Notes under the pieces: generated by a model | Databases searched by the model: none | Told to the model about the DNA's origin: nothing | Seen by the model: only the letters and a program-made list of their open reading frames with translations | Shown: piece by piece, positions 15,307 to 31,809 of the stretch | How the letters are laid out: every line of letters starts with the position of its first letter | Position numbering within the stretch: position 1 is the first letter of the stretch | Source: Candidatus Saccharimonadota bacterium | Lineage (GTDB): Bacteria > Patescibacteriota > Patescibacteriia > 2-12-FULL-60-25 | NCBI GenBank assembly: GCA_023898425.1 | Contig: CP060222.1 | Location: forward strand, 330,001-362,000 | Length of the DNA: 32,000 bases | Direction of reading: 5' to 3' | Program-made: the position numbers and the translations under genes

Positions 15307-15993
15307 ATGACCCAGGGACCACACCACGTAGCCATGATTATGGATGGCAATCGCCGCTGGGCAAAAGAACGCGGTCTTTCGACGATTGACGGTCATAAGG
15401 CCGGTTACGAAACAATGAAAAAGGTAGGGGATTGGTGTATCGATCGTGGAGTCAAAGTCCTTACCGTTTATGCGTTTTCTACAGAAAACTGGAAACGCTC
15501 AGAGACCGAAGTAAACTTTTTGATGCTCTTACTCGAAACAGCGCTCGAAAAAGAAATCGAATATTTTCTTACGCGACAAATTCGTTTGAGAATTATCGGT
15601 AGACGTGAAGGTTTTTCAAAAAAGATTCTTGATCTTATTGATAATGCAGAAAAAGAGACTGAGCATTTTCAAGATTTTACGTTCTGTATTTGTTTGAACT
15701 ATGGCGGACGTCAAGAAATTACTGATGCTGTAAAGGCTATTGTTACCTCGGGTATTTCTGTTGATGAAATTACCGAAGATACCGTAGCATCACATCTTTA
15801 CTGGTCTAATATGCCAGGTCCTGATCTCATTATTCGGACTTCAGGTGAAGAGCGCTTGAGTGGATTTTTGCTTTGGCAAGCAGCATATAGTGAGCTCATG
15901 TGGATGAAAAAGTATTGGCCAGATCTCGAAGAACGAGATGTTGATGCGTCTTTTGAACGGTTCGCAGAACGGTCGCGTCGATTTGGTAAATAG
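15307..15993 (+). CDS. uppS: Undecaprenyl (isoprenyl) diphosphate synthase
   Basis: HVAMIMDGNRRWA, YAFSTENWKR, IRTSGEERLSGFLLWQ. Confidence 0.93.
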   Translation: MTQGPHHVAMIMDGNRRWAKERGLSTIDGHKAGYETMKKVGDWCIDRGVKVLTVYAFSTENWKRSETEVNFLMLLLETALEKEIEYFLTRQIRLRIIGRREGFSKKILDLIDNAEKETEHFQDFTFCICLNYGGRQEITDAVKAIVTSGISVDEITEDTVASHLYWSNMPGPDLIIRTSGEERLSGFLLWQAAYSELMWMKKYWPDLEERDVDASFERFAERSRRFGK

Positions 15994-16014
15994 CACTCTT
16001 TACAGTCAAAAAAA

Positions 16015-16040
16015 GAAGCGATATCATTCGCTTCCTTTTT
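16015..16040 (+). terminator. Rho-independent terminator after uppS
   Basis: Stem gaagcga (16015-16021) with tcgcttc (16028-16034), then cttttt. Confidence 0.65.
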
Positions 16041-16079
16041 GTTTAATGACAAAAAGCGCACATTGAAAGGCTACGACAC

Positions 16080-16643
16080 ATGTCTGAACAAGAGTTAGAT
16101 CATCAGAGCGTAGGGGTGATTATTGCCTGCCCAGGGCTATATAAATTTCTTTTTCAGGTAAACGATGAAGGTCATCCTGACCCTCGTTGTAGAGGAAGAA
16201 TGCAACTCTGGGGTGGTCATATGAAGGAAGAGGATGACAACAATCCTTTTCTCGCGCTGAAGCGCGAACTCTCAGAAGAGTGGTGTGATCAAAGCGTTGT
16301 AGAAGAAGTGTCTCGATGCGTAAGTCGACAGACTCCGCGACGATTTATTCTTCAATCTAACGGAGGCTCACCTCATCCATACAGGTATAGTTTAGATGTA
16401 TTTCTTGCCCTGGCCCCTAGAGAACTCTTTATGGATTGGTTTATTCGCCTCGAGCATCAGGGGTTCAACGAAGGGCGTATGGTATTTCTTACGCGGGAGA
16501 TGATTAAGTACTATATCTCTGATAAAGACTTGCAGAGGCTTTTCTTGGGTAATCTACATGAGGTCATGAAGTATTACTTTGAAAGCGAAGAGTCTTTGAG
16601 CGGTCTTCAGACATTTGCGCGCTCTAGTCGTCCACATGTCTGA
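16080..16643 (+). CDS. Hypothetical protein with a divergent NUDIX-like box
   Basis: WGGHMKEEDDNNPFLALKRELSEEW resembles GX5EX7REUXEEXGU, but with three extra residues before the RE. Confidence 0.5.
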   Translation: MSEQELDHQSVGVIIACPGLYKFLFQVNDEGHPDPRCRGRMQLWGGHMKEEDDNNPFLALKRELSEEWCDQSVVEEVSRCVSRQTPRRFILQSNGGSPHPYRYSLDVFLALAPRELFMDWFIRLEHQGFNEGRMVFLTREMIKYYISDKDLQRLFLGNLHEVMKYYFESEESLSGLQTFARSSRPHV

Positions 16644-16666
16644 TAGTGTCCGAATCGTTTCTACTG

Positions 16667-16692
16667 AAAAAGCACCCGACTGGGTGCTTTTA
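16667..16692. terminator. Bidirectional terminator between the 16080 ORF and rpmA
   Basis: Stem agcaccc (16671-16677) with gggtgct (16682-16688), flanked by aaaa on the 5' side and tttt on the 3' side. Confidence 0.65.
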
Positions 16693-16708
16693 TCATACCG
16701 TTAAGCGA

Positions 16709-17062
16709 TTACGCTTTTTTGGTTGTTTTGCGGCTTGCTTTTTTAGGAGCAGCTTTTCTTACCACAGGAGCTTTTTGAGCTACGTCTGTAGGAACGACGT
16801 TTGCGTACTTAGCCATTTTGAGCTGGCCAGTAAAGCGACGTACGCGCTTATTCGTAAAGGATACAAGTCCTGTTGCTACCGCGAATAATGTGTCGTCACT
16901 GCCTTTCATGACATTGAGACCCGGGCGGATAGCTGTTCCGCGTTGGCGGACAATGATGTTGCCTGGTTTTACGTATTCACCTGCATAGCGTTTAACGCCG
17001 AGACGCTGACCTTGAGAATCTCGCAGGTTTTGGGTAGAACCACCGGCCTTTTTTGATGCCAT
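16709..17062 (-). CDS. rpmA: 50S ribosomal protein L27 with a basic C-terminal extension
   Basis: [44 protein letters not shown] tail of about 30 aa rich in K, A and P follows. Confidence 0.93.
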
Positions 17063-17118
17063 AAAAGGGTGCTAATAATTAATAATGATGGGCAGAATGA
17101 TACTGAAGTAGCAAAAAC

Positions 17119-17146
17119 TTGTCAAGAAAGCCAAAATCAGTAAAAT
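17119..17146 (+). promoter_or_regulatory. Candidate promoter for the NifU-like gene
   Basis: TTGTCA (17119-17124), a 16-nt spacer, TAAAAT (17141-17146). ATG 17158 lies 11 nt downstream, giving a very short leader. Confidence 0.45.
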
Positions 17147-17157
17147 TAGCTATATCT

Positions 17158-17433
17158 ATGATAAAAACCCAAGAACAGTTTAAAGAAGAGGTTGAAGGTG
17201 TCCTTGAGGTTGTTCGCCAGGGCTTGGCGTTTCACAACGGCAGTGTAGAACTTGTTGATGCTGATCCTGTCACGGGACGGGTAGAAGTGCGTTTTCAGGG
17301 TAACTGCGTCGGTTGTTCGATGGCAGATTTTACCTTCAAAGCCGGTGTAGAAGAGGTGCTATATGAGATGATTCCAGAAGTGAGAGAAGTTGTCTTAGCG
17401 CCCCCAGAAGAATCTATTGAAAAGAGTGCGTAA
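17158..17433 (+). CDS. NifU C-terminal-domain (Nfu-type) Fe-S cluster protein
   Basis: HNGSVELVD...VRFQGNCVGCSM is the CxxC NifU_C signature. The start was moved to ATG 17158 because the track start (TTG 17119) coincides with the -35 box. Confidence 0.8.
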   Translation: MIKTQEQFKEEVEGVLEVVRQGLAFHNGSVELVDADPVTGRVEVRFQGNCVGCSMADFTFKAGVEEVLYEMIPEVREVVLAPPEESIEKSA

Positions 17434-17451
17434 TACCCTTAGAATAGCAGC

Positions 17452-17829
17452 ATGAATTGGAGCACTTGGTTGCTATCCGCAAAGCTCGCGTGGGGAAAGC
17501 CTTTTTTGCGTTGGTCAACAATTATTTCGGTAGCATTATGCTTGGTGACGAGTGGCTTGTTTATCGCAACCGTTCTACCAGAAGCGATTCAAAATAACGC
17601 TTTTGCTTTTCATTATAACGTCTATTTTGGAATCGATGAGGTAAAGACTTGGCTCTGGGTCTTTTTCTTTCCGGGTATTTGGTTTGTGCTCACAATGCTA
17701 GATAGCTTGGTCGCCTACGGCTTTTATCGAACGGATGCTGTACTTGCGAATACAAGTGCGGCGTTAGCACTCGTCTGGGCTTTACCTTGGATGAGTTTTC
17801 TTTTTTATCTCTCTTTACTTAATACATAA
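17452..17829 (+). CDS. Hypothetical integral membrane protein (3-4 TM helices)
   Basis: 125-aa hydrophobic ORF closely followed by mraY. No family recognised. Confidence 0.5.
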   Translation: MNWSTWLLSAKLAWGKPFLRWSTIISVALCLVTSGLFIATVLPEAIQNNAFAFHYNVYFGIDEVKTWLWVFFFPGIWFVLTMLDSLVAYGFYRTDAVLANTSAALALVWALPWMSFLFYLSLLNT

Positions 17830-17852
17830 ACAATCACGCTATCCCGATTACT

Positions 17853-18908
17853 ATGACTATTGAACCTATTTTGCTTGCGCGTACTCTTGTAATTACTGGA
17901 GCGGCTTTTCTTATCTCGGTTATTTCGATGCCGCTCTTAATTAAGTTATTACGCAAGTATAAAATGGGTAAGTCTATTCGTGCAGCAGAGAATGCTCCGA
18001 TCATGGCATCGATGCATAAGGCAAAGGCCGGCACACCTACCATGGGTGGTATTGTGATTTGGGCAACGGTGCTTGTCCTTGTGCTTGGTTTAGCTGGCGC
18101 CTGTTCATTATTTGGCGAAAACTCACTCGCTTGCCAAATGAACTTTTTGTCTCGTGGTCAAACCTGGTTGCCGCTTGGTTTAATGTTTGGTGCAGCACTC
18201 ATTGGCTTGGTGGATGACTATCTAAACATTTTACGCATTGGTTCTAAAGGAGGTGGTTTACGCGAACGCGAACGCATCATTTCCTATGGTCTTATTGCTG
18301 TTGTTGGTGCTTTATGGTTTTTCTTAAAGCTCGGTTGGGATTATTTTCATATTCCGTTTATTGGAACGTTTGAGATTGGTTGGTACTACGTGCCATTCTT
18401 TATTCTTGTTATTATCTCTACATCACACTCGGTCAATGTTACAGACGGTCTTGATGGTTTAGCGGGTGGAATTTTGCTTTCATCTTTTGGTGCTTTTTCT
18501 ATCATTGCTTGGTCACAAGGACTCTATGATATTGCCACGTTATGTGGTGCGATTTGTGGAGCTCTCTTAGGCTTTCTTTGGTACAATATCAACCCTGCCG
18601 ATGTCTTTATGGGGGATACAGGTGCCATGTCACTAGGAACAACACTTGGTGTGATTGCCTTACTCACGAATCAGCCGTTGCTTTTACTTGTTATTGGACT
18701 TCCGTATGTTGTTGAGAGTTTGTCTGTTATCATTCAGCTTACGAGCAAAAAACTTCGTAATGGCAAAAAAGTATTTAAAGTAGCTCCTATTCATCATCAT
18801 TTTGAAGCTATTGGTTGGAGTGAACCTCGTGTCGTGATGAGGTTTTGGATGATCTCATTTGTGATGGCAGGTATCGGTATTATTTTAGGTCTCCTCGATA
18901 AAACGTAA
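17853..18908 (+). CDS. mraY: Phospho-N-acetylmuramoyl-pentapeptide transferase MraY
   Basis: GTPTMGG, VDDYLNI, NVTDGLDGLAGG, NPADVFMGDTGAMSLG, APIHHHFE. Confidence 0.93.
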   Translation: MTIEPILLARTLVITGAAFLISVISMPLLIKLLRKYKMGKSIRAAENAPIMASMHKAKAGTPTMGGIVIWATVLVLVLGLAGACSLFGENSLACQMNFLSRGQTWLPLGLMFGAALIGLVDDYLNILRIGSKGGGLRERERIISYGLIAVVGALWFFLKLGWDYFHIPFIGTFEIGWYYVPFFILVIISTSHSVNVTDGLDGLAGGILLSSFGAFSIIAWSQGLYDIATLCGAICGALLGFLWYNINPADVFMGDTGAMSLGTTLGVIALLTNQPLLLLVIGLPYVVESLSVIIQLTSKKLRNGKKVFKVAPIHHHFEAIGWSEPRVVMRFWMISFVMAGIGIILGLLDKT

Positions 18909-18913
18909 TTTAC

Positions 18914-20062
18914 ATGAGAACACCGTCGTTACTTGATCGTTTACGATCTCTAGACCCGATCATCGTCGGAGCGACGGCGTTTTTGTTGATTGTCGGTTTA
19001 GCAATCCTCATGTCTGCTACAGGTCCAATCGCTTTTCAGCGCTGGCAAGATAGCTTGCATATGGTGAAGCGTCAGCTTGTACTGGGTGTCTTTCCGGGAA
19101 TACTTGCTTTCTTGTTATTTTCTCTCATTGATTTTCGTATTTGGAAGCGGCTCGCTGTTTTTGGTTTTATAGGCAGCCTTGTATTGTTGCTCGCTGTCTA
19201 TACGCCGCTTGGTGTAAGGGTAGGTGGATCATTAAGTTGGCTTAATATTGCTGGTATCCAATTTCAACCGTCGGAGTTTGTAAAATTTGGTCTGCTCCTT
19301 TACTTCGCCGCATGGTTATCGTCGCGCACAGCTAAACAAGTCAAAGATTTACACGAGGGACTTCTGCCGTTTATCGGTTCATTGGGCGCTATTGTGTTGT
19401 TGCTTATCGTGCAGCCTGATACAGGTTCTATGGTGGTGATTGCAGGGATGTCAGGCATGATGTACCTCTTGTCTGGTGCGCCACTCTGGTGGTTTGGAGC
19501 ACTCGGTACTTCTGGCGTTGGTTTAGTTTGGTTATTGATCAAAACATCCGAGTATCGTGCAGCGCGTTTTATGACGTTTTTGCATCCGGAGCTTGATCCT
19601 CAAGGCATTGGTTATCACATCAATCAAGCCATGCTGGCTATCGGCTCTGGTGGATGGTTTGGTCTAGGTTACGGCAAGTCACGTCAAAAGTTTCTTTATT
19701 TACCAGCTGTTGAATCGGACTCCATCTTTGCTGTGATGGCTGAGGAGTTGGGGCTCATTTTTTGCAGCGTTGTGCTTGCGGTTATTGGTGTATTGGTGTG
19801 GCGTTGTTTTCAAATTTCGAAACAATCGAATGATAGTTTTGCAAAATATCTTTCTGCTGGAGTTGGTATTTGGATTGCCCTACAAACAGTCATTAATATT
19901 TTTTCGATGCTTGGATTAATGCCGATGACAGGTGTTACGCTTCCTTTTATCTCTTACGGTGGTACTTCTTTGACGGTTTTACTTGCTGCTATCGGCTTGG
20001 TAGCTTCTTTGCCAAGAAACGCCTCTTCAAGAGGAGTTGATCTGTTAAAAAAACGACTATGA
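18914..20062 (+). CDS. ftsW: SEDS-family peptidoglycan glycosyltransferase FtsW
   Basis: FQPSEFVK, QPDTGS, GYGKSRQKFLYLPAVESDSIFAV and PFISYGGTS motifs. It sits between mraY and murG. Confidence 0.9.
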   Translation: MRTPSLLDRLRSLDPIIVGATAFLLIVGLAILMSATGPIAFQRWQDSLHMVKRQLVLGVFPGILAFLLFSLIDFRIWKRLAVFGFIGSLVLLLAVYTPLGVRVGGSLSWLNIAGIQFQPSEFVKFGLLLYFAAWLSSRTAKQVKDLHEGLLPFIGSLGAIVLLLIVQPDTGSMVVIAGMSGMMYLLSGAPLWWFGALGTSGVGLVWLLIKTSEYRAARFMTFLHPELDPQGIGYHINQAMLAIGSGGWFGLGYGKSRQKFLYLPAVESDSIFAVMAEELGLIFCSVVLAVIGVLVWRCFQISKQSNDSFAKYLSAGVGIWIALQTVINIFSMLGLMPMTGVTLPFISYGGTSLTVLLAAIGLVASLPRNASSRGVDLLKKRL

Positions 20063-21171
20063 AATACGCATTTGTAGGAGGGGGGACGATGGGACCGGTT
20101 ACGCCACTCATCGCCGTATACCAAACGCTTAAGTCGCGTGAGGCTCAAGCAGAGTTCTGTTGGTTTGGCACCCCAAACGGCCCAGAAAAGCCCGTAATTT
20201 TGGCGCACAGCATCCCATTTTATGCTATTTCTGTGGCAAAATTTCCTAGGTATCCTTCAAAGCAATGGCTAACATGGCCATTTGATCTGTATCGCGCCTA
20301 TTCTGAAGCCAAAAAATATTTAAAAAATGAACGACCAAGTATCGTTATCGGTGCTGGTGGCTTTACGGCTTTTCCTGTTTCATTGGCGGCTCGTTCATTA
20401 AAGATTCCGGTCTTCTTACATCAACTTGATGTACATCCTAGCTTAACCAATAAGCTTATCGCTCCGTTTGCTTCTCGGATCACCACTTCGTTTTCCTATA
20501 AAAAATCGCCTTTCTTTACGAAGGCTTCTATTCACACAATCGCAACTCCCGTTCGTGATATGGGAGAAGAGATGTCTAAAGAGGTGGCTGCAACGTATTT
20601 TGCTTTAGATGCAACAAGGCCTACTGTATTGATTATTGGAGGCGGTACGGGTGCACAAGCAATAAACGACGCTTTTTTACAAAAAAAAGATACTTGGTTT
20701 AAAGATATGCAAGTAATACATGTTGCTGGCAAAGGAAAAAAAGCCGACGACTCATCTTATGAGTTTTTAGATGCTGAACGCATGCTTGCTGCTTATACAC
20801 TAGCCGATGTGGTTGTGACTCGTGCTGGTATGGGTTCTTTGTCAGAAATTGTTTCGTTGCAAAAGCCCAGTGTTATTGTGCCGATACCGTCTTCTCAACA
20901 AGAGGCAAATGCTCAGGTATTTGCAGACGCTGACGCGGCTATTGTTTTACATCAACAAGATGAGGGTTTTGCTTCTTTGTTGCATGCTTGTGTTTTAGCT
21001 CTTATTCAACAACCAAAAGATGCAAAGATGCTTACCGATCAATATTCAAAAGTCATGAAAGCTGATCACGGTGAGGCTTTTGTTCAGCAGCTAGAGACTT
21101 TTTACAATAACCTATGCATACACTATCAACGTTCAAAGATGTTTTTGATACGAGACTTGAGAAATATCTAG
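20059..21171 (+). CDS. murG: UDP-GlcNAc:lipid I N-acetylglucosaminyltransferase MurG
   Basis: GGGTMGPVTPLIAV, IGAGGFTAFPV, GGGTGAQAIN, TRAGMGSLSE. Its start overlaps the ftsW stop in an ATGA. The last 58 nt overlap the next gene. Confidence 0.88.
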   Translation: MKYAFVGGGTMGPVTPLIAVYQTLKSREAQAEFCWFGTPNGPEKPVILAHSIPFYAISVAKFPRYPSKQWLTWPFDLYRAYSEAKKYLKNERPSIVIGAGGFTAFPVSLAARSLKIPVFLHQLDVHPSLTNKLIAPFASRITTSFSYKKSPFFTKASIHTIATPVRDMGEEMSKEVAATYFALDATRPTVLIIGGGTGAQAINDAFLQKKDTWFKDMQVIHVAGKGKKADDSSYEFLDAERMLAAYTLADVVVTRAGMGSLSEIVSLQKPSVIVPIPSSQQEANAQVFADADAAIVLHQQDEGFASLLHACVLALIQQPKDAKMLTDQYSKVMKADHGEAFVQQLETFYNNLCIHYQRSKMFLIRDLRNI

Positions 21172-22178
21172 ACAGTAAATTAGCGCAACTCAAAAAACAG
21201 GTTGATGATAAAACGATTAATGACCTCTTTTCTCATACAAAAAGATCGTGATGAATGGTGGTAAGCGTGTACGACCTTACATGGCCGCCTTAAGCTTTGA
21301 AGCCTATGGCGGCAAATTAAATGAGTCTGTCTGGAGAGTGTTGTTAGGCATTGAGTTATTTCATGCTTTCGCTCTTGTGCATGATGATATTATGGATTTA
21401 GGCACGGATAGACATGGGACGCCAACCATTCATGAATTTGCAAAACAAACCTTTAAGAAACAAAAACGTATTGGTGATCTTCAGCATATTAGTCAGTCAC
21501 ATGGGATTTTGATCGGTGATATGCTTTTCGTTTGGGCCAATGAATGTATTTTTAATCAATCAAAACTTGATCGAAATATTTTGATTGCATTACAACAAAT
21601 TTATACCGAAATGAATCAAGAGGTAATGCTTGGGCAAATGCTTGATGTAGATGGTATGGCTCGAGCAACAGTAGATGACTCGCATGTCTTGCTAAAAACC
21701 TCAATGAAAACAGCCGGATATACCTTCGTCCAACCTTTAAGAATGGGATGGGCATTGGCAGGATCTCCGAAAAAATTCGCGTCATTTGCAGAGTCATTTG
21801 GTCGACCACTAGGCATTGCTTTTCAGATTCAAGATGACTTGCTCGATCTTATAGGGACGGCTGAAGAGCTGGGTAAGCAGCCATTCTCCGATTTGCGCGA
21901 TGGCCAACATACGCTTTTTTTCGCAATACATTTTTACAAACGGAACAAAGAAACAGAAAGAAACCTTGCGAAGCTTCATGCGCTCATCCATTGATAAAAA
22001 GAACGCTGAGAGTGTTTTTGCTCTTTTTGAGGAAAGTGGGGCATTTGAGATGATTACAAAAAAGATGAATGATTATTTTAAAAAAGCAGAAAAAGCAATT
22101 CGTCTTTCTGGATTGAGTATAGAAAAACAAAAAGGATTCATTGAGCTCTATGAGAAAATCTGTTCTCGTATAAGTTAA
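21114..22178 (+). pseudogene. trans-Polyprenyl diphosphate synthase (GGPP/FPP synthase, CrtE-like), two frameshifts as assembled
   Basis: Three pieces. Piece 1 is MHTLSTFKDVFDTRLEKYL... (21114-21251, frame 0). Piece 2 is ORF 21248-21994 (GGKRVRP, FARM LVHDDIMDLGTDRHG, SARM FQIQDDLLD). Piece 3 is ORF 21900-22178. Lengthening the A5 run at 21239-21243 to A6 and shortening the T7 run at 21915-21921 to T6 restores one protein of about 354 aa. Confidence 0.8.
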
Positions 22179-22179
22179 T

Positions 22180-23037
22180 ATGACGTTAGAGCAAGCCTAT
22201 AAAGAGTGTTCACGCATTCAAAAAAAACACGGCAAAAGTTATTTTTTTGCTACGCTCTTTTTTCAAAAAAAGCAAAGAAAGGCGGTGAACGCGCTCTATG
22301 CTTTTTTTCGCTTGCCAGATGAGATGGTAGACACAGAGACGCCAGAAAAAGCAGATGTTCTCCTCGAGCAATGGGAAGCTGATTGGATGGCGTGCATGAA
22401 TGGGGCTGAGACAACGCATCCTGTCTTGATGGCAACAAGAGATGTTTTTTTTAAGTATGATATTCCAATGCAATACGCTTCGGATTTTTTAGCGGCCATG
22501 CGACAAGATCTTACTAAGACGCGCTACGAAGACTATCCTTCGTTACAGGGCTATATGTATGGGTCTGCGGTCGTTGTGGGGCTTATGATGGTCTATATTA
22601 TTGGTTGGATAAAAGACACGACCTTTGATCAAGTGCAACAGCCCGCTGCTGCATTAGGTGAGGCGATGCAATTAACCAATTTTATTCGCGATATTGGCGA
22701 AGATTTTCGCTTGCGTGGACGTATTTATATGCCGCTAGATGAGCTGCGGACATTTCATCTAACAGAGAAAGACATTGAGCAAGCGTCTATGAGTCAAAAT
22801 ATGGTAGAATTTTTACAATGGCAAATCGCTCGTGCGGATGAGTTGTATGAAGAGGCGAATAAGGGGATTGCTCTATTGAATAAAGAAGGGAGACTACCAG
22901 TAAGGCTGGCCAGTGACCTTTATCGGTTTATTTTACGTAAGATTGAGCAAAATCAGTACGATGTTTTTACAAAGCGCGCAAAAACATCATTAACAGAAAA
23001 AATAAAAACGATTCCGTTATCAATGCTTTATGTCTAA
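22180..23037 (+). CDS. crtB: Phytoene/dehydrosqualene synthase family protein (CrtB/CrtM-like)
   Basis: SYFFATLFF, YAFFRLPDEMVD (first Asp-rich motif) and QLTNFIRDIGEDFRLRGRIYMP (second motif). Confidence 0.85.
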   Translation: MTLEQAYKECSRIQKKHGKSYFFATLFFQKKQRKAVNALYAFFRLPDEMVDTETPEKADVLLEQWEADWMACMNGAETTHPVLMATRDVFFKYDIPMQYASDFLAAMRQDLTKTRYEDYPSLQGYMYGSAVVVGLMMVYIIGWIKDTTFDQVQQPAAALGEAMQLTNFIRDIGEDFRLRGRIYMPLDELRTFHLTEKDIEQASMSQNMVEFLQWQIARADELYEEANKGIALLNKEGRLPVRLASDLYRFILRKIEQNQYDVFTKRAKTSLTEKIKTIPLSMLYV

Positions 23038-24553
23038 ACATGTTGTTATTATCGGTTCTGGATTAGGTGGTCTTGCGACAGCTGCCTTATTAGCAAAGTC
23101 CGGTTTACGCGTAACGGTTCTCGAAAAAAACGAGCAACTAGGAGGTCGTGCAAGTATTCTTGAAAAAGAAGGGTTTCGATTTGATATGGGACCATCTTGG
23201 TACCTCATGCCCGATATTTTTGAGCATACTTTTTCGTTACTTGGCGAAAAACTCGAAGACTATCTAGATCTTGTGCGATTAGACCCGTCTTATCGCGTGT
23301 ATTTTAAAGATGAGGCTGTCGCGCCTGTTGATTTACGCTCTATCGTAGAAGAAGACAAAAAGATTTACGAACAACTTGAGTCAGGGTCTTCGTCAAAGTT
23401 AGATGAGTATCTCAAAAGATCAAAATATCAATACGAAGTGTCCAAAAAAGATTTTTTGTATGGAAATATTGATTCACCTTTGGATTTTTTTACCCCACAA
23501 CTATTGTTAGAGGGTACAAAGCTTTCAGTATTCCAGACCATGGATACGTATGTGAAGCGTTGGTTTTCGTCACCATTTGTTCAAAAGCTCTTGCAATATC
23601 CGCTCGTCTTTTTAGGTAATTCACCGTTTAATGCTCCTGCTATCTACAGCATGATGACGCATATCGATACGGAGTTAGGAGTATTTTATCCAAAAGGCGG
23701 TATCTATGAGATCACGAAATCACTCGTGGCTATCGGCAAAAAATATGGCGTTGAATACCGTGTGAACACAGCAGTAAAACGGATTCTGGTAGAAGGACGT
23801 GAAGCGAAGGGTGTACAACTAGAAGATGGTTCAGAGATTGCAGCTGATATGGTTGTCTCTAATGCGGATCTTGAGTTTACGGACAGAGTTTTACTTGGAG
23901 AAGAGCACCGTCAACACTCTGACCGCTACTGGAACAAGCGTACACTGGCTCCTTCGGCGTTTATTGCTTATTTAGGTATCAATGGTCGTGTAAAAGGACT
24001 TGAGCACCACACGCTCGTTTTCGCTAAAGACTGGAAAGAAAACTTTCGTCAGATCTTTGATCAACCGGTATGGCCTACGGATCCTTCTTTTTATGTATGC
24101 ACGCCATCAAAGACTGATGATACGGTTGCACCTCCTGATCACGAAAATATGTTCCTCCTCGTTCCTGTTGCGGCTGGCTTAGAGGATACACTCGAAATAC
24201 GTGAAGCCTATCTACAAAAGATACTTGCGACGATTGAAGAGCAAACGGGAGAAACACATTTAGCAGAACGAATAGTTGTAAAAGAACTTTTTAGTATTCG
24301 TGATTTTGAAAAACGTTACAATAGCTATCGTGGAACAGCGCTAGGACTTGCGCATACCTTGCTTCAGACAGCTTGGTTCCGTCCCAAAACAAAACATTCA
24401 AAGATTGATAATCTTTACTTTGTCGGTGCTGGTGCACAACCGGGTATCGGAATGCCGATGGTACTTATTAGCGCTGAGTTGATTGTAAAGCGCTTAATGA
24501 AAGATACGTCCATGCAGGCACTCACAAAGCTACCGGATTTATCAAATCTCTAA
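23030..24553 (+). CDS. crtI: Phytoene desaturase family protein (CrtI/CrtN-like)
   Basis: FAD fingerprint VVIIGSGLGGLATAALLAKSGLRVTVLEKNEQLGGRA and C-terminal YFVGAGAQPGIGMPMV. It overlaps crtB by 8 nt. Confidence 0.88.
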   Translation: MSKHVVIIGSGLGGLATAALLAKSGLRVTVLEKNEQLGGRASILEKEGFRFDMGPSWYLMPDIFEHTFSLLGEKLEDYLDLVRLDPSYRVYFKDEAVAPVDLRSIVEEDKKIYEQLESGSSSKLDEYLKRSKYQYEVSKKDFLYGNIDSPLDFFTPQLLLEGTKLSVFQTMDTYVKRWFSSPFVQKLLQYPLVFLGNSPFNAPAIYSMMTHIDTELGVFYPKGGIYEITKSLVAIGKKYGVEYRVNTAVKRILVEGREAKGVQLEDGSEIAADMVVSNADLEFTDRVLLGEEHRQHSDRYWNKRTLAPSAFIAYLGINGRVKGLEHHTLVFAKDWKENFRQIFDQPVWPTDPSFYVCTPSKTDDTVAPPDHENMFLLVPVAAGLEDTLEIREAYLQKILATIEEQTGETHLAERIVVKELFSIRDFEKRYNSYRGTALGLAHTLLQTAWFRPKTKHSKIDNLYFVGAGAQPGIGMPMVLISAELIVKRLMKDTSMQALTKLPDLSNL

Positions 24554-25380
24554 CGAAGAAAAGCGGCGACAAAAAATAGGAGCGCTCCAAAAAGAGTATT
24601 AATGATCGGAAAATAGCGATAGTTTTTTGTGAGTAATAGGTCACCGTCTTTATAGCTCTTCGCCATCATAAAGACATAAGCTATTCCAGCAACAAAGCCG
24701 AATAGCGGACTCAAAGGAATGATGAGTAGCGCGGCCATCGCATAAAGAAAAAGACAAAAAAGGACGGTATATCTCCAGCCAAGCTTGGTTGCGATGGTTT
24801 GTAATCCTGCTTTTGTATCAGCTTCAATATCAGGAGCAGCGCTATAGGCATGCATCGCCATACACCAAAGCGTTGCCGCGATAAGAATCGAAGAGTTCCA
24901 AAGAGTACCTCCTCCAAGCGCGTAGGCAAAAAAGCCTGGCAAAGCGTAGAGAATATTAGAGGCGCTATCAAAGAATGGGCGTACTTTAAAGCGTAGTGGC
25001 GGTGACGAGTAAAAGAGACCCAAAAAGAGAAAGCTAAGAATGAGAGCAAGAGGTAATGCCGATAATCCAAGAAAAAGAAGGAAGAAGGGGAGATGCGCGA
25101 TAGCAATGAGAGTGCCTATAAAATTTCGTCTATCTGGCGGGACAAGTGCTTCGTAATCTTGTTTTTTTGCATTTAAAACATCCGTTTCATAATCAAAGCA
25201 GTCATTAAATCCATAAATAAAGATATTTGCTGGATAGGTAAAATAAAGGAGCCAGGGCCAGAGTTGCCAAGGAATGACGCCCGTTTGTCGATAGAGGAGC
25301 GCTGCACCAATAAGAAAAGGGCCAAGAAGATAAATCCAAAATCTCGGTCTTGATACTTTGAGCCAAAAGGGGAGCTTCAT
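24550..25380 (-). CDS. UbiA-superfamily prenyltransferase, lycopene-elongase-like by context
   Basis: About 8 TM helices. The Asp-rich motifs are NDCFDYETD and PDIEAD. Its stop codon overlaps the crtI stop by 4 nt on the opposite strand. The start is probably ATG 25380; the track uses TTG 25386. Confidence 0.8.
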   Translation of the reverse strand: MKLPFWLKVSRPRFWIYLLGPFLIGAALLYRQTGVIPWQLWPWLLYFTYPANIFIYGFNDCFDYETDVLNAKKQDYEALVPPDRRNFIGTLIAIAHLPFFLLFLGLSALPLALILSFLFLGLFYSSPPLRFKVRPFFDSASNILYALPGFFAYALGGGTLWNSSILIAATLWCMAMHAYSAAPDIEADTKAGLQTIATKLGWRYTVLFCLFLYAMAALLIIPLSPLFGFVAGIAYVFMMAKSYKDGDLLLTKNYRYFPIINTLFGALLFFVAAFLR

Positions 25381-25416
25381 GGTCAAAGCGTAGCATGTTG
25401 GCTATCATTTTGTCTT

Positions 25417-26761
25417 ATGAGCTTAGATCCTAGACGTACACGCACGTTGAGTCATCACCCCTATCAAAAAGGAGCAATCGCTTATTGGATGAATCGCGAA
25501 ATGCGCCTCAAAGATAATTGGGCTTTGCTTGCTGCTCAGGATTGGGCAATTCGTGAACAGGTGGCTTTAAAAATCGCGTATAATCTTGATCCTGGATTTT
25601 TAGGCGGAGGTCGTCGTCAATTTACATTTAAGTTAGACGCACTTAAGGAAATCTTTACGGACTGCCAGAAAAAAGGGATAAGCTTTTCGTTGATGATTGG
25701 ATCAAAAACAGAAGTAGATTTGATCAAGTGGGTAAAGAAAGAACAGATAGGTGGACTTGTGACGGATTTTGCACCTTTACGTTTGCAACGAAAGTGGCTA
25801 AAGACTGTAGTAAATGCTATTGAGATTCCTGTTATTGAAGTTGATGCGCATAATATTGTTCCGTGTTGGATTGCTTCGGAAAAGCCTGAGTATGGTGCGT
25901 ATACGTTACGTACAAAGATCAATAAGATGTTAAAAGAATTTCTTGTTGAATATCCTGAGCTAAAAAAACATCCGATTAGTACGTCGTCGTCTACCATTAA
26001 CTGGAGTGCTCTTGAAAAGAGCTTTAATGGTAAAGAAATCGCTCCTGTGACTTGGATCAAAGCAGGGGAGAAAGAAGCGTTAAAAAGCTCTACGAGGATT
26101 TATTGAGCATGAATTAAATGGGTACGATGAAGGTCGTAATGATCCTAATGCACAAGCACAGTCTGATTTATCTCCCTACTTTCATTATGGGATGCTGAGT
26201 CCGCAAAGAGCTGCCTTAGAAGTGATGAAATCAAAAGCATCAACAAAAGATAAAGACGCCTACTTAGAAGAGCTTATTATACGTCGAGAATTAGCGGATA
26301 ATTTTTGTTACTATCATCCAAGTGATTATGATACGGTTGGTTGTTTTCCTGACTGGTCAAAACAAGATATTGCAAAACATCGTAAAGACAAAAGAGACTA
26401 TCTTTATACGTTAAAGCAATTTGCGTTAGCAAAAACCCATGACTCATTATGGAATGCTGCTCAACAAGAGATGGTGAAGCAAGGAAGGATGCATGGTTAT
26501 ATGCGCATGTATTGGGCAAAAAAGATTTTAGAGTGGAGCGCCTCAGTAGAAGAAGCGATGAACATTGCTATTACATTAAACGATCGTTATGAATTAGATG
26601 GTCGTGATCCAAATGGCTATGCTGGAATCGCATGGTCAATGGGTGGTGTTCACGATCGACCATGGAGCCGACGTCCAATTTTTGGAAGAGTGCGTTATAT
26701 GAATGATCGCGGATGTGCAAGAAAATTTGATGTTGAGGCCTATTGTAAGCGTTGGCTCTAG
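25417..26761 (+). pseudogene. phr: Class II CPD photolyase (deoxyribodipyrimidine photolyase), one frameshift as assembled
   Basis: N-terminal half: YWMNREMRLKDNWALLAAQ. C-terminal half: SDLSPYFHYGMLSPQR, GRMHGYMRMYWAKKILEW, GYAGIAWSMGG. Shortening the A5 run at 26082-26086 to A4 joins them as ...EALKALRGFIEHELNGYDEGRNDP.... Confidence 0.88.
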
Positions 26762-26789
26762 GTATAGGAGAAGGTAGCTTTTTTGTGTA

Positions 26790-26817
26790 TTGCCTTTTTT
26801 GTTCAATTCAGTATAAT
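26790..26817 (+). promoter_or_regulatory. Candidate promoter for tRNA-Lys
   Basis: TTGCCT (26790-26795), a 16-nt spacer, TATAAT (26812-26817). It lies about 20 nt upstream of the tRNA 5' end. Confidence 0.5.
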
Positions 26818-26836
26818 ACCCGCCATCAAAACACTT

Positions 26837-26912
<76 letters not shown>

Positions 26913-26920
26913 TACAATTA

Positions 26921-26942
26921 CCCCTGCGTAAGCAGGGGTTTT
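26921..26942 (+). terminator. Rho-independent terminator after tRNA-Lys
   Basis: Stem cccctgc (26921-26927) with gcagggg (26932-26938), loop gtaa, then tttt. Confidence 0.7.
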
Positions 26943-27056: not shown

Positions 27057-27115
27057 AATGCCAAAAGACGAAAAGTGACGTTTTTTTGCTATTTAGGTAC
27101 AATACAGACAATTCC

Positions 27116-28234
27116 ATGCGTATCTATATCATAGGCTCTAAAGGCATACCTTCGGCATCAATACAGGGCTCTGGTGGTGTTGAAAGGCATGTTGAGCAAA
27201 TTGCAACGCGTCTTGTTGATCGCGGGCATGAGGTATTTGTCTATGTGAGAAACTCGTCTCACTATGCTGCACAAGAATGGAATGGCGTTAAGCTTATACG
27301 CGTGCCTTTTTTACCCGGTAAGAATACGGCAACGATTACACATGTTTTTTTATCTACATTGCATGTGCTTTTTCAGAGAGCGGATATCATTCATTTTCAT
27401 GGGGTAGGTTCTTCTACGCTTGCATGGATTCCACGGTTGCTAAAATGGAAATCAAAAATTGTTGCCACGTTTCATAGCCGTGATTGGTTTGATACGAAAT
27501 GGTCTCGGTTTGCTCGATGGTATTTACAGTTCGGTGAATGGTCGGCCGTGCATTTTCCGCACAAAACAATTGCGGTATCACATGTGATCCAGGTGTTTTG
27601 TCGCAAGTCCTACAATAAACAAGTTGCTTATATCCCAAATGGAGCAGATATCCCAGCACCTCAAGGTGTTGAGTTACTTTCTGCTTTTAACCTAAAAGCA
27701 AATGAGTATCTATTAGGCGTTGGTAGATTAGTCCCAAATAAAGCTTATGATATTGCTATCGAGGCATTTCGTGATGTCGTTACTGATAAAAAGCTCGTGA
27801 TTGTTGGTGAAGCATTTCACTCAAGTCACTACGATCAAAAGTTACGTCTTTTAGCAGAGAAAGATCCACGCGTGATATTACTCGGTTACCAAAGTGGCGA
27901 GCCGCTTAAACAAGTATTAGCGCATGCTTATGCTTTCGTTCATCCATCAAGAGCCGAGGGACTTTCGGTAGCTATCATTGAGGCGATGGCAAATGCCAAG
28001 CTTGTTATTATGTCAGATATTAAAGAAAATTTAGAGCTTGTAGATCATAGCGGTCTTGCCTATACAACCGATGATGTAAAAGCGTTAACGGTAGCAATGC
28101 AACTTGTTGTGGATGACCCAGAGATGACAAGGCAGCGAGGCTTACGTGCCCGCGAGGTTGTGCGCAAAGAGTATTCTTGGGATTCGGTGATACTGCGTCT
28201 CGAAGAGCTATACAAAGAGCTGCTGGCTCACTAA
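27116..28234 (+). CDS. GT4-family glycosyltransferase (DUF1972-like N-terminus plus Glycos_transf_1 C-terminus)
   Basis: MRIYIIGSKGIPSASIQGSGGVERHVEQIA resembles the N-terminus of WchF/RgpA-type enzymes. The C-terminal HPSRAEGLSVAIIEAMA is the EX7E region. Start set at ATG 27116. Confidence 0.85.
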   Translation: MRIYIIGSKGIPSASIQGSGGVERHVEQIATRLVDRGHEVFVYVRNSSHYAAQEWNGVKLIRVPFLPGKNTATITHVFLSTLHVLFQRADIIHFHGVGSSTLAWIPRLLKWKSKIVATFHSRDWFDTKWSRFARWYLQFGEWSAVHFPHKTIAVSHVIQVFCRKSYNKQVAYIPNGADIPAPQGVELLSAFNLKANEYLLGVGRLVPNKAYDIAIEAFRDVVTDKKLVIVGEAFHSSHYDQKLRLLAEKDPRVILLGYQSGEPLKQVLAHAYAFVHPSRAEGLSVAIIEAMANAKLVIMSDIKENLELVDHSGLAYTTDDVKALTVAMQLVVDDPEMTRQRGLRAREVVRKEYSWDSVILRLEELYKELLAH

Positions 28235-28244
28235 GATAGATACT

Positions 28245-29581
28245 ATGAACGTAGTAATATTGAAGCAGGCCAATACGCAAAGGGGAGTGGTGTATCCGCA
28301 GCATTATACTTCGCTAAACAAGGCGATGATGTTTGCGTGACGGACTTAAAAACAGAGGCTGAACTTGCAAGTAATGTTAAGCAGTTAAAAAATATAAAAC
28401 GTACGTTTTACCTTTGGAAAACACGATCTAAAAGATATTCGTTGGGCAGATCTTATTGTGCGTGGTCCACGAGTTCGTAAAGACTCTCCAGAGATGAAAG
28501 AGGCAGCAAAAAGAATATTCAAACAACCTCTGATATTGCGCTTTTTCTTTCTCGCTGTCCTGCACCAGTGGTGGGTATTACGGGTACACGAGGTAAAAGC
28601 ACGACAACCATGATGACGTATGAGATTGCGCAAGCTGCAAAGCGTTGGCGTAAGGTTTGGTTAGGTGGAAATATTCTTGTTTCACCACTCACCTTTTTAT
28701 CGCAAGTAAAATCGAATGATTTGGTTGTGCTTGAATTATCAAGCTTTCAATTAGAGGGTACGGGTGATGCTGGACTCTCTCCGCAAATTGCTGTTTGGAC
28801 TAACTTGATGCGAGATCACCAAGACGCCTATCCTGACATGGATTCATACGCTGAGGCTAAGGCACAGATATTCCGTCATCAAAAGCCTGAAGACGTTGTT
28901 TTGTTGCCGTCTGACAAATTCTATAACGAATATGCAAGCGAAGCTCCTGGTCACGTCTATCGTTTTGGCAAAAAAAAATAGCGAAGAAGTGAGTCTTGTC
29001 GCAGGGACGAAATTACGTGTACCAGGTGAACACAATAAGCGTAATGCAGAAATTGCAGCAGCTATTGCGTTTGAGCTTGGGATCAAACCCACGGTTATTA
29101 AAAAAGCCCTCAAAGATTTTAAAGGGCTTGAGAACCGTATTGAAACCATCGCTACGATAAAAGGTATTGAATATATCAATGATACTACAGCGACAACACC
29201 TGATGGCGCGATGGCCGCAGTAAATGCCTTGCAAAAAGCAAAGCGCATGGTGAATATTTTGTTTGGTGGCGCAAATAAAGAGCTTGATTTTACTGAAGTC
29301 TCAAAGCTTTTTAAGAAGCGTAAAAGATATTCGCGTCTTTTTGTTGCCAGGTACCGCAAAAGAAGAAATTATCAAAGCCTTTAATAAAGCAAAAGTCTCT
29401 TTTGAAGAAGTGGCTGATTTAGCGCATGGCGTAGAACGCGCACAAGAAGAAGCAAAAAAAAGGTGACATCGTGCTTTTATCACCGGGTTGTGCGAGTTTT
29501 GGATTTTTTCTCAATGAGTTTGATCGCGGCGAACAATTTGTAAAGATCGTCAAAGAAACTTGCAAAACAACAATAGTATGA
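28245..29581 (+). pseudogene. murD: UDP-N-acetylmuramoylalanine--D-glutamate ligase MurD, about 6 frameshifts as assembled
   Basis: The pieces read MNVVI.. / EAGQYAKGSGVSAALYFAKQGDDVCVTDLK / VRFTFGKHDLKDIRWADLIVRGPRV / SDIALFLSRCPAPVVGITGTRGKSTTT...NLMRDHQD / LRVPGEHNKRNAEIAAAIA...NDTTATTPD...LFGGANKELDF / DIRVFLLPGT / [26 protein letters not shown]. Frame changes occur near 28259-28261 and at A4 28396-28399, A5 28508-28512, A9 28970-28978, T5 29308-29312 and A8 29454-29461. Confidence 0.85.
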
Positions 29582-30304
29582 TGGCGTGGATTTTTGGTTT
29601 GCCTATCGAGGGACTTCATCGAGATACTATTATCGATATTATTCGTCATAGCACAACATCGCAGTGGCTTGTAACAGCTAATCCAGAAATTCTTTTAGAA
29701 ACAAAAAGAAATTCGCTTTATTCTAGCGCAGTGAAGAAAGCATCATTTCGACTTGTTGATGGGATGGGTTTGGCGCTCGCCTGTCGTTTGAAGGGATCAA
29801 AGGTAACGCGTGTCACCGGCGTTGAGTTATCCGAGTCATTATTGCAGTTAGCGCAAGAGATGCGTTGGCGCGTTGCTTTGGTTGGCTCACAATCCCAAGA
29901 GGCAATGCAAAAGCTTCTTCGTGATGTTCGAGCAGCATATCCTGATATTTCGGTGATGGGGAGCTAGCTGGTAAGGTGGATGAGAAAGGCATTGGTGATC
30001 TTGCAAACGAAGAAGCCTCGATGAGATTGTCGCAATTTGATCCGCAGATTGTCCTTGTTGCTTTTGGACATCCCAAGCAAGAGCTATGGATCGAACAACA
30101 CAAAACGGACTATCCTTCGCTAAAAGCGATCATGGGTGTTGGTGGAACATTCGACTATTGGTCAGGTGCGGTAAAACGAGCACCAAGATGGATGAGGCAA
30201 GTAGGGCTTGAGTGGCTTTGGCGTGTATTTATTGAGCCAAAACGCATTAAACGTATTTTGATGCGGTGATTTTGTTTCCCATTCATGTTTTATTGTCAAA
30301 ATAG
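29578..30304 (+). pseudogene. WecB/TagA/CpsF-family glycosyltransferase, 1-2 frameshifts as assembled
   Basis: VTANPEILLE, RLVDGMGLALA, VLVAFGHPKQELWI, GVGGTFDYWSGAVKRAP, GLEWLWRVFIEPKR. Lengthening the G4 run at 29958-29961 to G5 joins the two ORFs. A second +1 in the T4 run at 30256-30259 would extend the C-terminus to a stop at 30302-30304 (less certain). Its start overlaps the murD stop in an ATGA. Confidence 0.75.
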
Positions 30305-30329
30305 CGTTTTTCGCTTAAATTAGCTGTCT

Positions 30330-31809
30330 ATGGCCACATCAAAATCCGGTACGCGTACGTCTTTGCTCCAAGCCCTACGGGCTATGTGCATATCGGTACC
30401 CTGCGACAGCGCTTTATAACTGGTTTTTAGCTCGTAATATGGGTGGGACGTTTTTATTGCGTGTAGAAGATACCGACCGCGCTCGTTATGTTGAGGGAAG
30501 TATTGAAAACCCTAATAAAGGTGATGAAACAATGCGATCTTGAAGCTGATGAGGGTTTGATTCTTACTTCGACGGGAGAACTTGAAGATAAAGGCGACTA
30601 TGGTCCTTATTTGCAAAGCAAACGCAAAGAGCGTCATCTCGCCTATGCCTATGAGCTCATTGAAAAGGGTCTCGCGTACTATTGTTTTTGTACAAAAGAA
30701 CGTCTAGAAGAGATTGCGCAAAAACAAAAGGAGCTCAAACAGCCATTTATGTATGATCGTTGCTGTCGTGACTTGCCTCGAGAAAAAGCAGAGAATCGTG
30801 CAGCTGTTGGTGATGAGCATGTGATTCGCTTGGCTGTTCCACTCGAGGGCTCTATCACCATGAATGATTTGATTCGTGGAAAGGTAACGATTCCATGGTC
30901 ACAAATTGATGATCAGGTTTTGATTAAATCTGATGGGTATCCTACGTATCATCTTGCGGCAACCTGTGACGATCATGATATGGGGATCACCCATGTTGTG
31001 CGTGGTGAAGAATGGCTCTCCTCATTGCCAAAGCATATTTTCATTGCTCAATCTTTTGGTTGGGACGTGCCAGAATATGCACATCTACCATTATTGTTGA
31101 ACGCTGATCGCTCAAAGCTTTCAAAACGCCAAGGGATGTTGCTGTTGAGGATTATCTTGCAAAGGGGTACTTGCCAGAGGCGTTAGTTAATTTTGTTGGC
31201 ATTGCTCGGTTGGAATCCAACAGCTGATCGTGAAATATTTACCAAAGAAGAATTAGCTGAGCTTTTTGATATCACTAAGGTAAACAAAGCTGGAGCGGTC
31301 TTTAATATCGAAAAAACTTGATTGGTTAAATGCGCATTATCTCAAGCAGCTTTCTGAAGAGGAATTTTGAAAAAATCCACACCCTTCATTAAAGATGTGC
31401 CAGGTGATGCAAAATGATTCAACGTGCAACGGTCATCTCACGTGAGCGTGTGAGTGTTTTGTCGCAGTTACCTGAGCTTGTGAACGAAGCTCTCGAAGCT
31501 CCAGCGCCAACAGCAGAAAGTCTCGTTTGGAAGAAATCCACCAAAGAAGAGGCGGTTACTCGTTTGCAGGGCGTACGTGCATTTGTCTCTGGATTAAGTG
31601 ATGATGATTTTACATCTGTTGCAAAACTCGAAGAAGCGATGAAGGCATTTATTGCAGAAAAGAGTTGGGGCAACGGTGATACGCTTTGGCCAACGCGTGT
31701 AGCGTTATCTGGTCGCGAAAAATCCCCAAGCCCATTTGAGTTGTTATACGTCTATCAAAAAGCGCTTTCATTGACACGTATCGACGAAGCACTCGCTCTT
31801 CTGGCATAA
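30330..31809 (+). pseudogene. gltX: Glutamyl-tRNA synthetase GltX, about 8 frameshifts as assembled
   Basis: The reconstructed reading contains [21 protein letters not shown] (HIGH region), LLRVEDTDRAR, YGPYLQSKR, AYYCFCTKERLE, SDGYPTYHLAATCDDHDMGITHVVRGEEWL, KLSKRQG (KMSKS), NFVALLGWNP and a C-terminal anticodon-binding part (ORF 31414-31809). Frame changes are listed in the findings. Confidence 0.88.

Follow-up and report, generated by a model that had tools for sequence, protein, structure and literature searches.

The locus considered here raises the question of why genes for carotenoid synthesis and light-driven DNA repair should stand behind the cell-wall genes mraY, ftsW and murG in the genome of a Candidatus Saccharimonadota bacterium. 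The stretch of DNA that was analysed, referred to as the window, comprises 32,000 nucleotides of contig CP060222.1 (assembly GCA_023898425.1, positions 330,001 to 362,000), and the genes in question occupy its positions 21114 to 26761. An earlier reading, made from the letters of the window without database searches (the sequence-only reading), had seen in them a carotenoid gene set with a UbiA-family C5-elongase, linked to a class II cyclobutane pyrimidine dimer (CPD) photolyase and possibly acquired from archaea. The follow-up with open reading frames (ORFs), sequence inspection and profile hidden Markov models confirmed the gene order mraY-ftsW-murG-synthase-crtB-crtI, followed by the UbiA gene, the photolyase, tRNA-Lys, a GT4 gene and murD (Table 1). 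We consider it likely that the region holds a complete, probably functional bacterioruberin-type C50 pathway together with a class II CPD photolyase, directly downstream of mraY-ftsW-murG; the elongase claim was supported and could be sharpened to the LyeJ type, and the archaeal origin found no support.

In the pathway that we propose, the polyprenyl synthase would form geranylgeranyl diphosphate (GGPP), two molecules of which would be joined by CrtB to give phytoene. A single CrtI-type enzyme would then convert phytoene to lycopene and also carry out 3,4-desaturations, and the LyeJ-like UbiA enzyme would place a C5 unit and water onto each end of the chain, this elongation and hydration alternating with the CrtI/CrtD 3,4-desaturation until bisanhydrobacterioruberin is reached, a dihydroxy carotenoid of the formula C50H72O2 with 13 conjugated double bonds. 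The photolyase would repair cyclobutane pyrimidine dimers with blue or near-ultraviolet (UV) light. That both desaturase activities can reside in one enzyme has been demonstrated for the haloarchaeal proteins C0507 and D1086 (PMC11946383).

The first enzyme is a protein of 354 residues once two single-nucleotide homopolymer errors (at 21239 and 21915, discussed below) are repaired, and an intact 354-residue orthologue is encoded in one of the related loci, which are referred to here by number (L091). Its first aspartate-rich motif (FARM) is DDIMD, preceded by phenylalanine at -5 and alanine at -4 and free of any insertion (context ...LFHAFALVHDDIMD...), and its second (SARM) is DDLLD. A FARM of the form DDxxD without the two-residue insertion and with an aromatic residue at -5, as had been pointed out earlier, is the pattern of the type I ("archaeal-type") GGPP synthases, for which the FARM provides a rule of chain length. 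The archaeal affinity that had been read from this motif was not borne out: the best match in the PDB was 3lk5 with 143 bits against 117 bits for 1wy0 (which we take to be Corynebacterium and Pyrococcus enzymes, respectively), and among the NCBIfam models the highest scores came from one for encapsulin cargo (167.5 bits) and one of mycobacteria (160 bits), with the methanogen IdsA following at 136 bits. Judged by these scores, the best matches are not specifically archaeal. The repaired protein lies below the cut-off of every NCBIfam equivalog, the CrtE equivalog NF045685 giving 66 bits on the largest fragment, and it is probably a short-chain, CrtE-like prenyl synthase that forms GGPP.

It is possible, if doubtful, that this protein is mainly a housekeeping farnesyl diphosphate or GGPP synthase for UppS and the lipid II carrier, which sits behind murG because it feeds UppS and to which the carotenoid genes are merely attached. 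Such a role would be compatible with the pathway proposed above, and would alter what is regarded as fused to what. The conserved block also contains, 5 kb upstream, the gene uppS, whose product is another enzyme of this neighbourhood that draws on short-chain prenyl diphosphate; the synthase gene follows murG closely in three assemblies (at 3 nt, at 4 nt and with an ATGA overlap), and the lack of a match to the CrtE equivalog goes together with best models that describe general short-chain synthases. On the other side, the synthase travels with crtB-crtI-lyeJ in unrelated Patescibacteria contexts (L002, L083 and a contig from the Joint Genome Institute, JGI), and in locus L058 about 800 nt separate it from murG.

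For CrtB, the best NCBIfam model was that of the cyanobacterial CrtB (209 bits, cut-off 550), HpnD gave 184 bits (cut-off 279), and the best PDB matches were enzymes of the CrtM type. Since a genuine haloarchaeal CrtB likewise scores best on HpnD, these models cannot separate C40 from other CrtB specificities; the context, with LyeJ and a CrtID-type desaturase, favours a C40 phytoene synthase, and crtB is kept upstream of crtI in most LyeJ loci. CrtI passes the equivalog for the bifunctional CrtI/CrtD enzyme, NF058655 (CrtID), narrowly with 640.9 against 640 bits, and reaches 510.8 bits on the general crtI family model TIGR02734; the CrtI of Halocatena, used as a calibration, gave 749.5 bits on NF058655. 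One crtI-type gene is present in the window, and likewise one in L091. The alternative raised earlier, that the synthase and desaturase pair belongs with the squalene enzymes HpnC/D/E, was excluded on the side of the desaturase because CrtI reaches the CrtI/CrtD bifunctional model, while HpnE gave 44 bits, over the N-terminus alone.

The UbiA protein was assigned with the help of haloarchaeal plasmid loci that contain annotated crtB-crtI-prenyltransferase-cruF clusters (L087 from Halocatena salina and L089 from Halarchaeum). The Halocatena LyeJ, encoded in a crtI-lyeJ-cruF cluster, scores 426 bits on NF009516, which identifies this model as that of the LyeJ-type family, and the protein of the window passes it with 251.4 bits against a cut-off of 205. 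It fails two sister prenyltransferase models (144.6 against 248, and 127.7 against 217), and on the MenA, UbiA and chlorophyll-synthase models it scores 32 bits or less, which speaks against the grouping with MenA, UbiA or digeranylgeranylglyceryl phosphate (DGGGP) synthases that had been considered as a way in which the elongase claim could fail. Its aspartate-rich motifs, N59-D60-x2-D63-x3-D67 and D184-x3-D188, are invariant in an alignment of 26 homologues, and some homologues carry the JGI label lycopene elongase/hydratase. The protein is predicted to be of the LyeJ (bacterioruberin) type, with C5 addition to, and 1,2-hydration of, lycopene-type ends. An enzyme of another kind, whether CrtEb-like, responsible for a different C45/C50 product, or a MenA, UbiA or DGGGP synthase, would let the pathway end at lycopene or another carotenoid, and appears improbable. 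It would fit with there being no characterised bacterial member of this clade outside the Actinobacteria, with an identity to haloarchaeal LyeJ of just ~36%, and with no cruF being found here; it is opposed by the model scores, by the labels of the homologues, by the invariable pairing with crtI and crtB, and by the usual pairing with cruF.

The last gene of the module is broken as assembled, the photolyase being read in two frames (25417-26106 and 26192-26761) that change at the A-run at 26082. The repaired protein, in which this 1-nt error is mended, has 447 residues and passes TIGR00591 (phr2) with 576.4 bits against 550.05, the unrepaired fragments giving 193.8 and 307.8 bits. It aligns end to end with solved class II enzymes (best PDB matches 8oet and 2xry, ~450 bits), in agreement with the earlier assignment as a class II CPD photolyase, and its named close relatives are Patescibacteria proteins at 79% and 55% identity and one Aenigmarchaeota protein at 53%.

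The synthase is likewise read in three frames (21114-21251, 21248-21994 and 21900-22178), and whether such breaks are real was decided by comparison with L091, a short-read contig that is 97.84% identical to window 15426-26882 over 11,459 bp. The two differ by four indels in total, all of one base in homopolymers and located exactly where the frames change: at 21099 (T5 in the window, T6 in L091; end of murG), at 21239 (A5 and A6; synthase), at 21915 (T7 and T6; synthase) and at 26082 (A5 and A4; photolyase). The genes of L091 are all intact (MurG 340 residues, synthase 354, CrtB 285, CrtI 507, UbiA protein 276, photolyase 447), and repair of the window at the indel sites led to the same protein lengths. 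The frame breaks are therefore assembly errors, and by this comparison the carotenoid/photolyase module is intact in nature; intact close homologues also include 447-residue photolyases at 95-96% identity (P0121, P0122) and a 276-residue LyeJ at 99%. A decaying module, with real frameshifts in the synthase and the photolyase and a strain devoid of pigment or photolyase, would account for the three frame breaks and the extended murG tail as assembled, and is very unlikely: besides the homopolymer character of all four differences, murD, wecG and gltX are also broken, at runs such as A8 and A9 (A9, A4 and A8 in murD), the essential murD and gltX more so than the module, and breaks at homopolymer runs speak for faults of the assembly and against decay of the genes. 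In the relative L001 other genes are affected, the reading frame being interrupted in murG, GT4 and the synthase.

The same comparison bears on the junction with murG. The sequence-only reading had described a 58-nt overlap between murG and the synthase gene, and this overlap exists in the window as assembled; it is almost certainly an artefact of a miscalled T-run. The MurG of L091 stops 3 nt ahead of the synthase start and, given T6, the window's murG would stop at TAA 21108-21110, 3 nt before the synthase ATG. This is most likely the true stop, the last 61 nt of the ORF resulting from the T5/T6 miscall at 21099-21103. The argument that the overlap leaves no room for a promoter of the synthase gene falls with the assembly error, although the 3-nt gap still leaves none. 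The other spacings were all found as described: a gap of 1 nt between the synthase stop at 22178 and the crtB start (ORF list), an 8-nt overlap of crtB and crtI, convergent stop codons that overlap (TAG 24550-24552 of the UbiA gene, TAA 24551-24553 of crtI), and 36 nt between the ATG of the UbiA gene at 25380 and the photolyase start at 25417.

As a separate observation, indels relative to L091 numbered 0 over 15.4-21.0 kb of the window and four over 21.1-26.1 kb, and murD, wecG/tagA and gltX (28268-31809) are each read across three or four frames; the final 4 kb thus have a far higher density of apparent indel errors.

To see how common the arrangement is, one genome per GTDB species was scanned; 434 species had a relative of the UbiA protein, and the loci of the 80 best were examined. 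All 80 are bacterial, with ~44 from Acidobacteriota and ~24 from Patescibacteria (Uhrbacteria, Paceibacteria, Parcubacteria, Saccharibacteria and Peribacteria), the remainder coming from Armatimonadota, Actinomycetota and others. In almost every one of them a crtI-type gene converges on lyeJ and is preceded by crtB; the loci that also include a polyprenyl synthase are mainly those of Patescibacteria, and a Caroten_synth (CruF-family) gene diverges from lyeJ in ~70 of 82 loci. The cassette, with crtB-crtI convergent on lyeJ and cruF divergent, is widespread in bacteria. The crtI partner of lyeJ is present in the window, and the neighbouring cruF of the ~70 loci is missing next to lyeJ in the window, L001, L003 and L091; a tblastn search (E up to 5), for which eight CruF sequences of Acidobacteriota, Actinomycetota and Patescibacteria served as queries, found no cruF in these loci or in L083. 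As cruF is absent from the neighbourhood, the pathway is expected to stop at bisanhydrobacterioruberin; bacterioruberin itself would require a cruF at another place in the genome.

The usual position of cruF is held exactly by the class II photolyase in the window, L001/L004, L003 and L091/L092, which have in common the block uppS...mraY-ftsW-murG-synthase-crtB-crtI-lyeJ-photolyase. The more distant L058, with a MraY 71% identical, keeps the order mraY-ftsW-murG ... synthase-crtB-crtI-lyeJ, and there cruF is in the photolyase's place and a photolyase is absent. The JGI contig has synthase-crtB-crtI, then lyeJ, then a co-directional cruF-photolyase pair, the same pair occurs in L065, and in L083 lyeJ is followed after 590 bp by a photolyase. 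Photolyase genes lie within 10 kb of lyeJ in 3 of the 80 species loci (L003, L004 and L065). The linkage of pigment and photorepair noticed earlier is thus recurrent (L065, L083, JGI contig), yet a minority arrangement; in the lineage of the window, the photolyase has taken the cruF position.

Several observations were made on the wider set of loci. In nine loci from Paceibacteria, Parcubacteria and Saccharibacteria (L008, L016-L018, L022, L026, L028, L034 and L035), cruF-lyeJ-crtI(D) stands without crtB or polyprenyl synthase, within at most 10 kb on each side of lyeJ and less at contig ends; in these, phytoene synthesis might be encoded elsewhere, or a C40 substrate might come from a host. 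Genes without a Pfam or NCBIfam match adjoin the carotenoid/photolyase block in L001 (7668-8576, 302 aa) and L002 (8649-9536, 295 aa), the former being missing from the window, in which photolyase and GT4 are separated by tRNA-Lys only. On the Halocatena salina plasmid (L087, 1063-1404), a pyrimidine-dimer DNA glycosylase (endonuclease V) is encoded 2 kb upstream of crtI-lyeJ-cruF and is another UV-repair gene beside bacterioruberin genes. In a Pyrinomonadaceae locus (L007, 8670-9959), a fusion protein of 429 aa combines a CruF-family domain with a NUDIX hydrolase domain at the C-terminus. Loci L053, L058 and L065 come from metagenome-assembled genomes titled "uncultured Gammaproteobacteria"; L058 has Patescibacteria-like synteny, with MraY 71% and GT4 66% identical to the window and the gene order kept, and L053 and L065 group just loosely with Patescibacteria-type sequences in poorly resolved neighbour-joining trees, so these labels look unreliable, most clearly for L058.

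The genes synthase, crtB and crtI are probably read through from the mraY-ftsW-murG transcript, because they follow murG and one another at 3 nt, 1 nt and -8 nt, with no notable terminator in between; the terminator scan gave no terminator-like site of note at 20.0-24.5 kb, and a strong terminator-like hairpin follows tRNA-Lys at 26920-26939. The synthase may also feed UppS, 5 kb upstream, which would be a functional reason for its place behind murG. On the other side of the module, lyeJ and the photolyase would diverge from a common region of 36 nt that is nearly invariant in four assemblies (window, L091, L001 and L003), with the consensus GGyCAAAGCGTAGCATGTyGGnTATynTTTTGTCTT; 32-33 of its 36 positions are identical in L001 and L003, in which the proteins are ~80% identical. 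A weak sigma-70-like -35/-10 match (9/12) at 25380-25408 ends 8 nt before the photolyase ATG. This conservation, in a small sample, hints at a shared control region of lyeJ and photolyase, and the spacer may be a shared operator or the promoter of a near-leaderless mRNA. Taken together as a tentative model, a CruF-less pathway to bisanhydrobacterioruberin would form the tail of the lipid II operon mraY-ftsW-murG, and the photolyase would have displaced cruF under a conserved 36-nt bidirectional control region.

The idea that the module had been acquired from archaea was examined by composition, synteny and relatedness. Its GC content is 0.412 and that of third codon positions (GC3) 0.354, the other genes having means of 0.442 (standard deviation, SD, 0.027) and 0.390 (SD 0.044), and the tetranucleotide distances of its 3-kb windows have z-scores of 0.1-1.2. 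A compositional island, for which such checks had been recommended, was rejected, gene-wise GC and GC3 as well as the tetranucleotide distances being unremarkable in the module; the sole outlier lies at 10-13 kb, around recR and dnaB. The nearest relatives of LyeJ and CrtI are bacterial, with 45-59% identity. Haloarchaeal LyeJ proteins are 32-36% identical, against 45-52% for bacterial ones, and CrtI is at a distance of 0.88 from the haloarchaea and of 0.59-0.67 from bacteria. In neighbour-joining trees of both proteins, the window, L003 and L004 form a clade with 100% bootstrap that lies inside the bacterial sequences, with the haloarchaea outside. A search among plasmids also gave a match at 35% identity on an Arthrobacter plasmid, which carried no annotation. 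With a composition within the spread of the flanking genes, a shared synteny and bacterial relatives, the module has been passed on within the lineage, and the data lend no support to a recent transfer from archaea. A recently transferred light-protection island of archaeal origin is hardly credible, the fame of bacterioruberin and class II photolyases as archaeal features, the FARM pattern, the slightly lower GC and the tRNA gene at one edge being outweighed by a GC difference of ~1 SD of the between-gene spread, by a synteny common to relatives down to 71% MraY identity, by the bacterial origin of all 80 best genome matches, by the LyeJ and CrtI comparisons and by the Patescibacteria among the named photolyase relatives. 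An ancient inter-domain transfer of the whole family may have occurred. Nor is the module as unexpected in a reduced genome as had been supposed, given the ~24 Patescibacteria among the 80 best loci and the lyeJ, crtD and cruF genes published from this phylum in 2023 (PMC9948471).

Some points weigh against the bacterioruberin-type pathway as proposed. Every functional step is deduced from homology and context, and because CrtB and the synthase reach no equivalog cut-off, the C40 specificity and the GGPP chain length are drawn from the context and the FARM rule. The margin of CrtI over the CrtID cut-off is 0.9 bit, and the orthologous proteins of L002 and L007, with 633 and 619 bits, just miss that value. 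The search for cruF covers ~32 kb in the window and 11-21 kb in the relatives, and a source of isopentenyl and dimethylallyl diphosphate is not visible in the window. Promoters and terminators were scanned for by match to a consensus alone, and promoter-like matches were fewer than in shuffled sequence (15 against a mean of 24.6). The trees are neighbour-joining trees with bootstrap values below 50 at the deep nodes, and no sister group is claimed.

Table 1. Position and supporting evidence of the module genes and their neighbours in the window.
Feature	Coordinates	Strand	Evidence
uppS (undecaprenyl-PP synthase)	15307..15993	+	PF01255 273.6 bits; 92% identity to L001 orthologue
mraY	17853..18908	+	PF00953 and MraY signature; L001 orthologue 89% identical
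ftsW	18914..20062	+	ORF; PF01098 on L091 orthologue
murG as assembled	20059..21171	+	PF03033, PF04101; TIGR01133 216 bits
Short-chain trans-polyprenyl diphosphate synthase (CrtE-like, probably GGPP synthase)	21114..22178	+	PF00348
crtB (phytoene synthase family)	22180..23037	+	PF00494 229.5 bits
crtI, CrtI/CrtD (phytoene desaturase / 3,4-desaturase) type	23030..24553	+	NF058655, TIGR02734, PDB 4rep and 4dgk
lyeJ-like UbiA prenyltransferase (lycopene elongase/hydratase family)	24550..25380	-	NF009516
lyeJ-photolyase divergent intergenic spacer, 36 nt	25381..25416	.	Alignment; promoter-like match
Class II CPD photolyase	25417..26761	+	TIGR00591 (repaired protein), PDB 8oet/2xry
tRNA-Lys(UUU)	26837..26912	+	ARAGORN; Rfam RF00005
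GT4-family glycosyltransferase	27086..28234	+	PF13439, PF00534; 82-87% identical to L001
murD, four frames as assembled	28268..29566	+	tblastn with intact 443-aa L001 MurD; TIGR01087 on one fragment

The position of the module has to be seen against the arrangement of the surrounding division and cell wall (dcw) genes. In place of the canonical order mraY-murD-ftsW-murG, the window has mraY-ftsW-murG, the 5.6-kb module, tRNA-Lys, GT4 and then murD, which starts ~7.1 kb past the end of murG, close to the ~7 kb estimated earlier. Since mraZ and rsmH (2347-3713) are located 14 kb upstream, the dcw genes are scattered. The order mraY-ftsW-murG/module/murD is also that of L001, and of L091 and L003 as far as their contigs extend. 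Within the window, Rfam at gathering thresholds revealed no riboswitch or other known RNA but the tRNA. Two genes carry the Glycos_transf_4 domain of the MraY/WecA family (7255-8337 and 17853-18908), and only the latter has the MraY signature and the linkage to ftsW-murG; the former, which follows clpB, probably encodes a WecA/TagO-type enzyme. The folD ORF (14389-15396, minus strand) overlaps the start of uppS head to head by 90 nt, and since FolD domains are matched from residue 62 onward, folD probably starts further downstream, the overlap being an artefact of ORF calling.

Several known systems resemble parts of this locus. In the haloarchaeal cluster crtB / crtI-crtD (C0507) / lyeJ (C0506) / cruF (C0505) of Haloarcula japonica, the enzyme families are alike: LyeJ passes the same NCBIfam model, CrtI reaches CrtID, crtB and crtI adjoin lyeJ, and the chemistry proposed here follows that described for this system (PMC11946383). 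There, crtI, lyeJ and cruF are co-directional, whereas in the window lyeJ converges on crtI, the photolyase is in the place of cruF, a prenyl diphosphate synthase belongs to the block and LyeJ is ~36% identical. The Patescibacteria of Lake Baikal, in which lyeJ, crtD and cruF were reported in 2023, sometimes unlinked (PMC9948471), share with the window the host at the level of the phylum and the marker genes lyeJ and a crtD-type desaturase; the window differs in that no cruF was found, crtB and the synthase are linked, the block stands behind murG and a class II photolyase is attached. Established bacterial producers of bacterioruberin belong to Arthrobacter, e.g., A. agilis and A. bussei (PMC9122864). 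The compact decaprenoxanthin operon crtE-crtB-crtI-crtYe/Yf-crtEb of Corynebacterium glutamicum (PMC3598387) similarly combines CrtE, CrtB and CrtI with a UbiA-type lycopene elongase; in contrast, the window has no C50 cyclase genes (crtYe/Yf), and its elongase scores above the cut-off of the LyeJ-type model and below those of the two sister prenyltransferase models.

The photolyase is a full-length counterpart (~450 bits) of the class II enzymes of Methanosarcina mazei (2xry/8oet) and rice (3umv), with MYWAKKILEW and LNDRYELDGRDPNGYAGIAWS conserved, and differs from them in its Patescibacteria host and in its nearest relatives, which are environmental and Patescibacteria sequences at 55-96% identity. 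Neighbourhoods that combine carotenoid synthesis genes with photolyase or UV-repair genes, e.g., around Znf-heliorhodopsins, are a recognised photoprotection theme (PMC8612252). The window shares the co-location of carotenoid genes with a DNA photolyase, and unlike those neighbourhoods has no rhodopsin, sensor or regulator gene detected in it; its link to light regulation is one that we infer. The gene families, the pathway and its presence in Patescibacteria are already published, and current knowledge is not overturned. This locus is set apart by its placement behind murG, by the linkage of synthase and crtB, and by a photolyase that stands in place of cruF.

Patescibacteria are usually described as unable to make most of their own lipids. 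The linked synthase-crtB-crtI-lyeJ genes indicate that a C50 pigment that spans the bilayer is probably within the biosynthetic reach of some of them, starting from isopentenyl diphosphate, and the place of these genes behind murG and beside a photolyase marks the lineage as light-exposed. The cassette has a broad distribution among bacteria (Acidobacteriota, Patescibacteria, Armatimonadota and Actinomycetota), and for this reason pigments of the bacterioruberin type should not be taken as a signature of haloarchaea in metagenomes. If the tentative model of a CruF-less pathway at the tail of the lipid II operon is true, the synthesis of a membrane-spanning C50 pigment would keep pace with the growth of the envelope and draw on the prenyl diphosphate pool of the lipid carrier, and an ultra-small, otherwise lipid-dependent bacterium would possess a complete de novo carotenoid synthesis.

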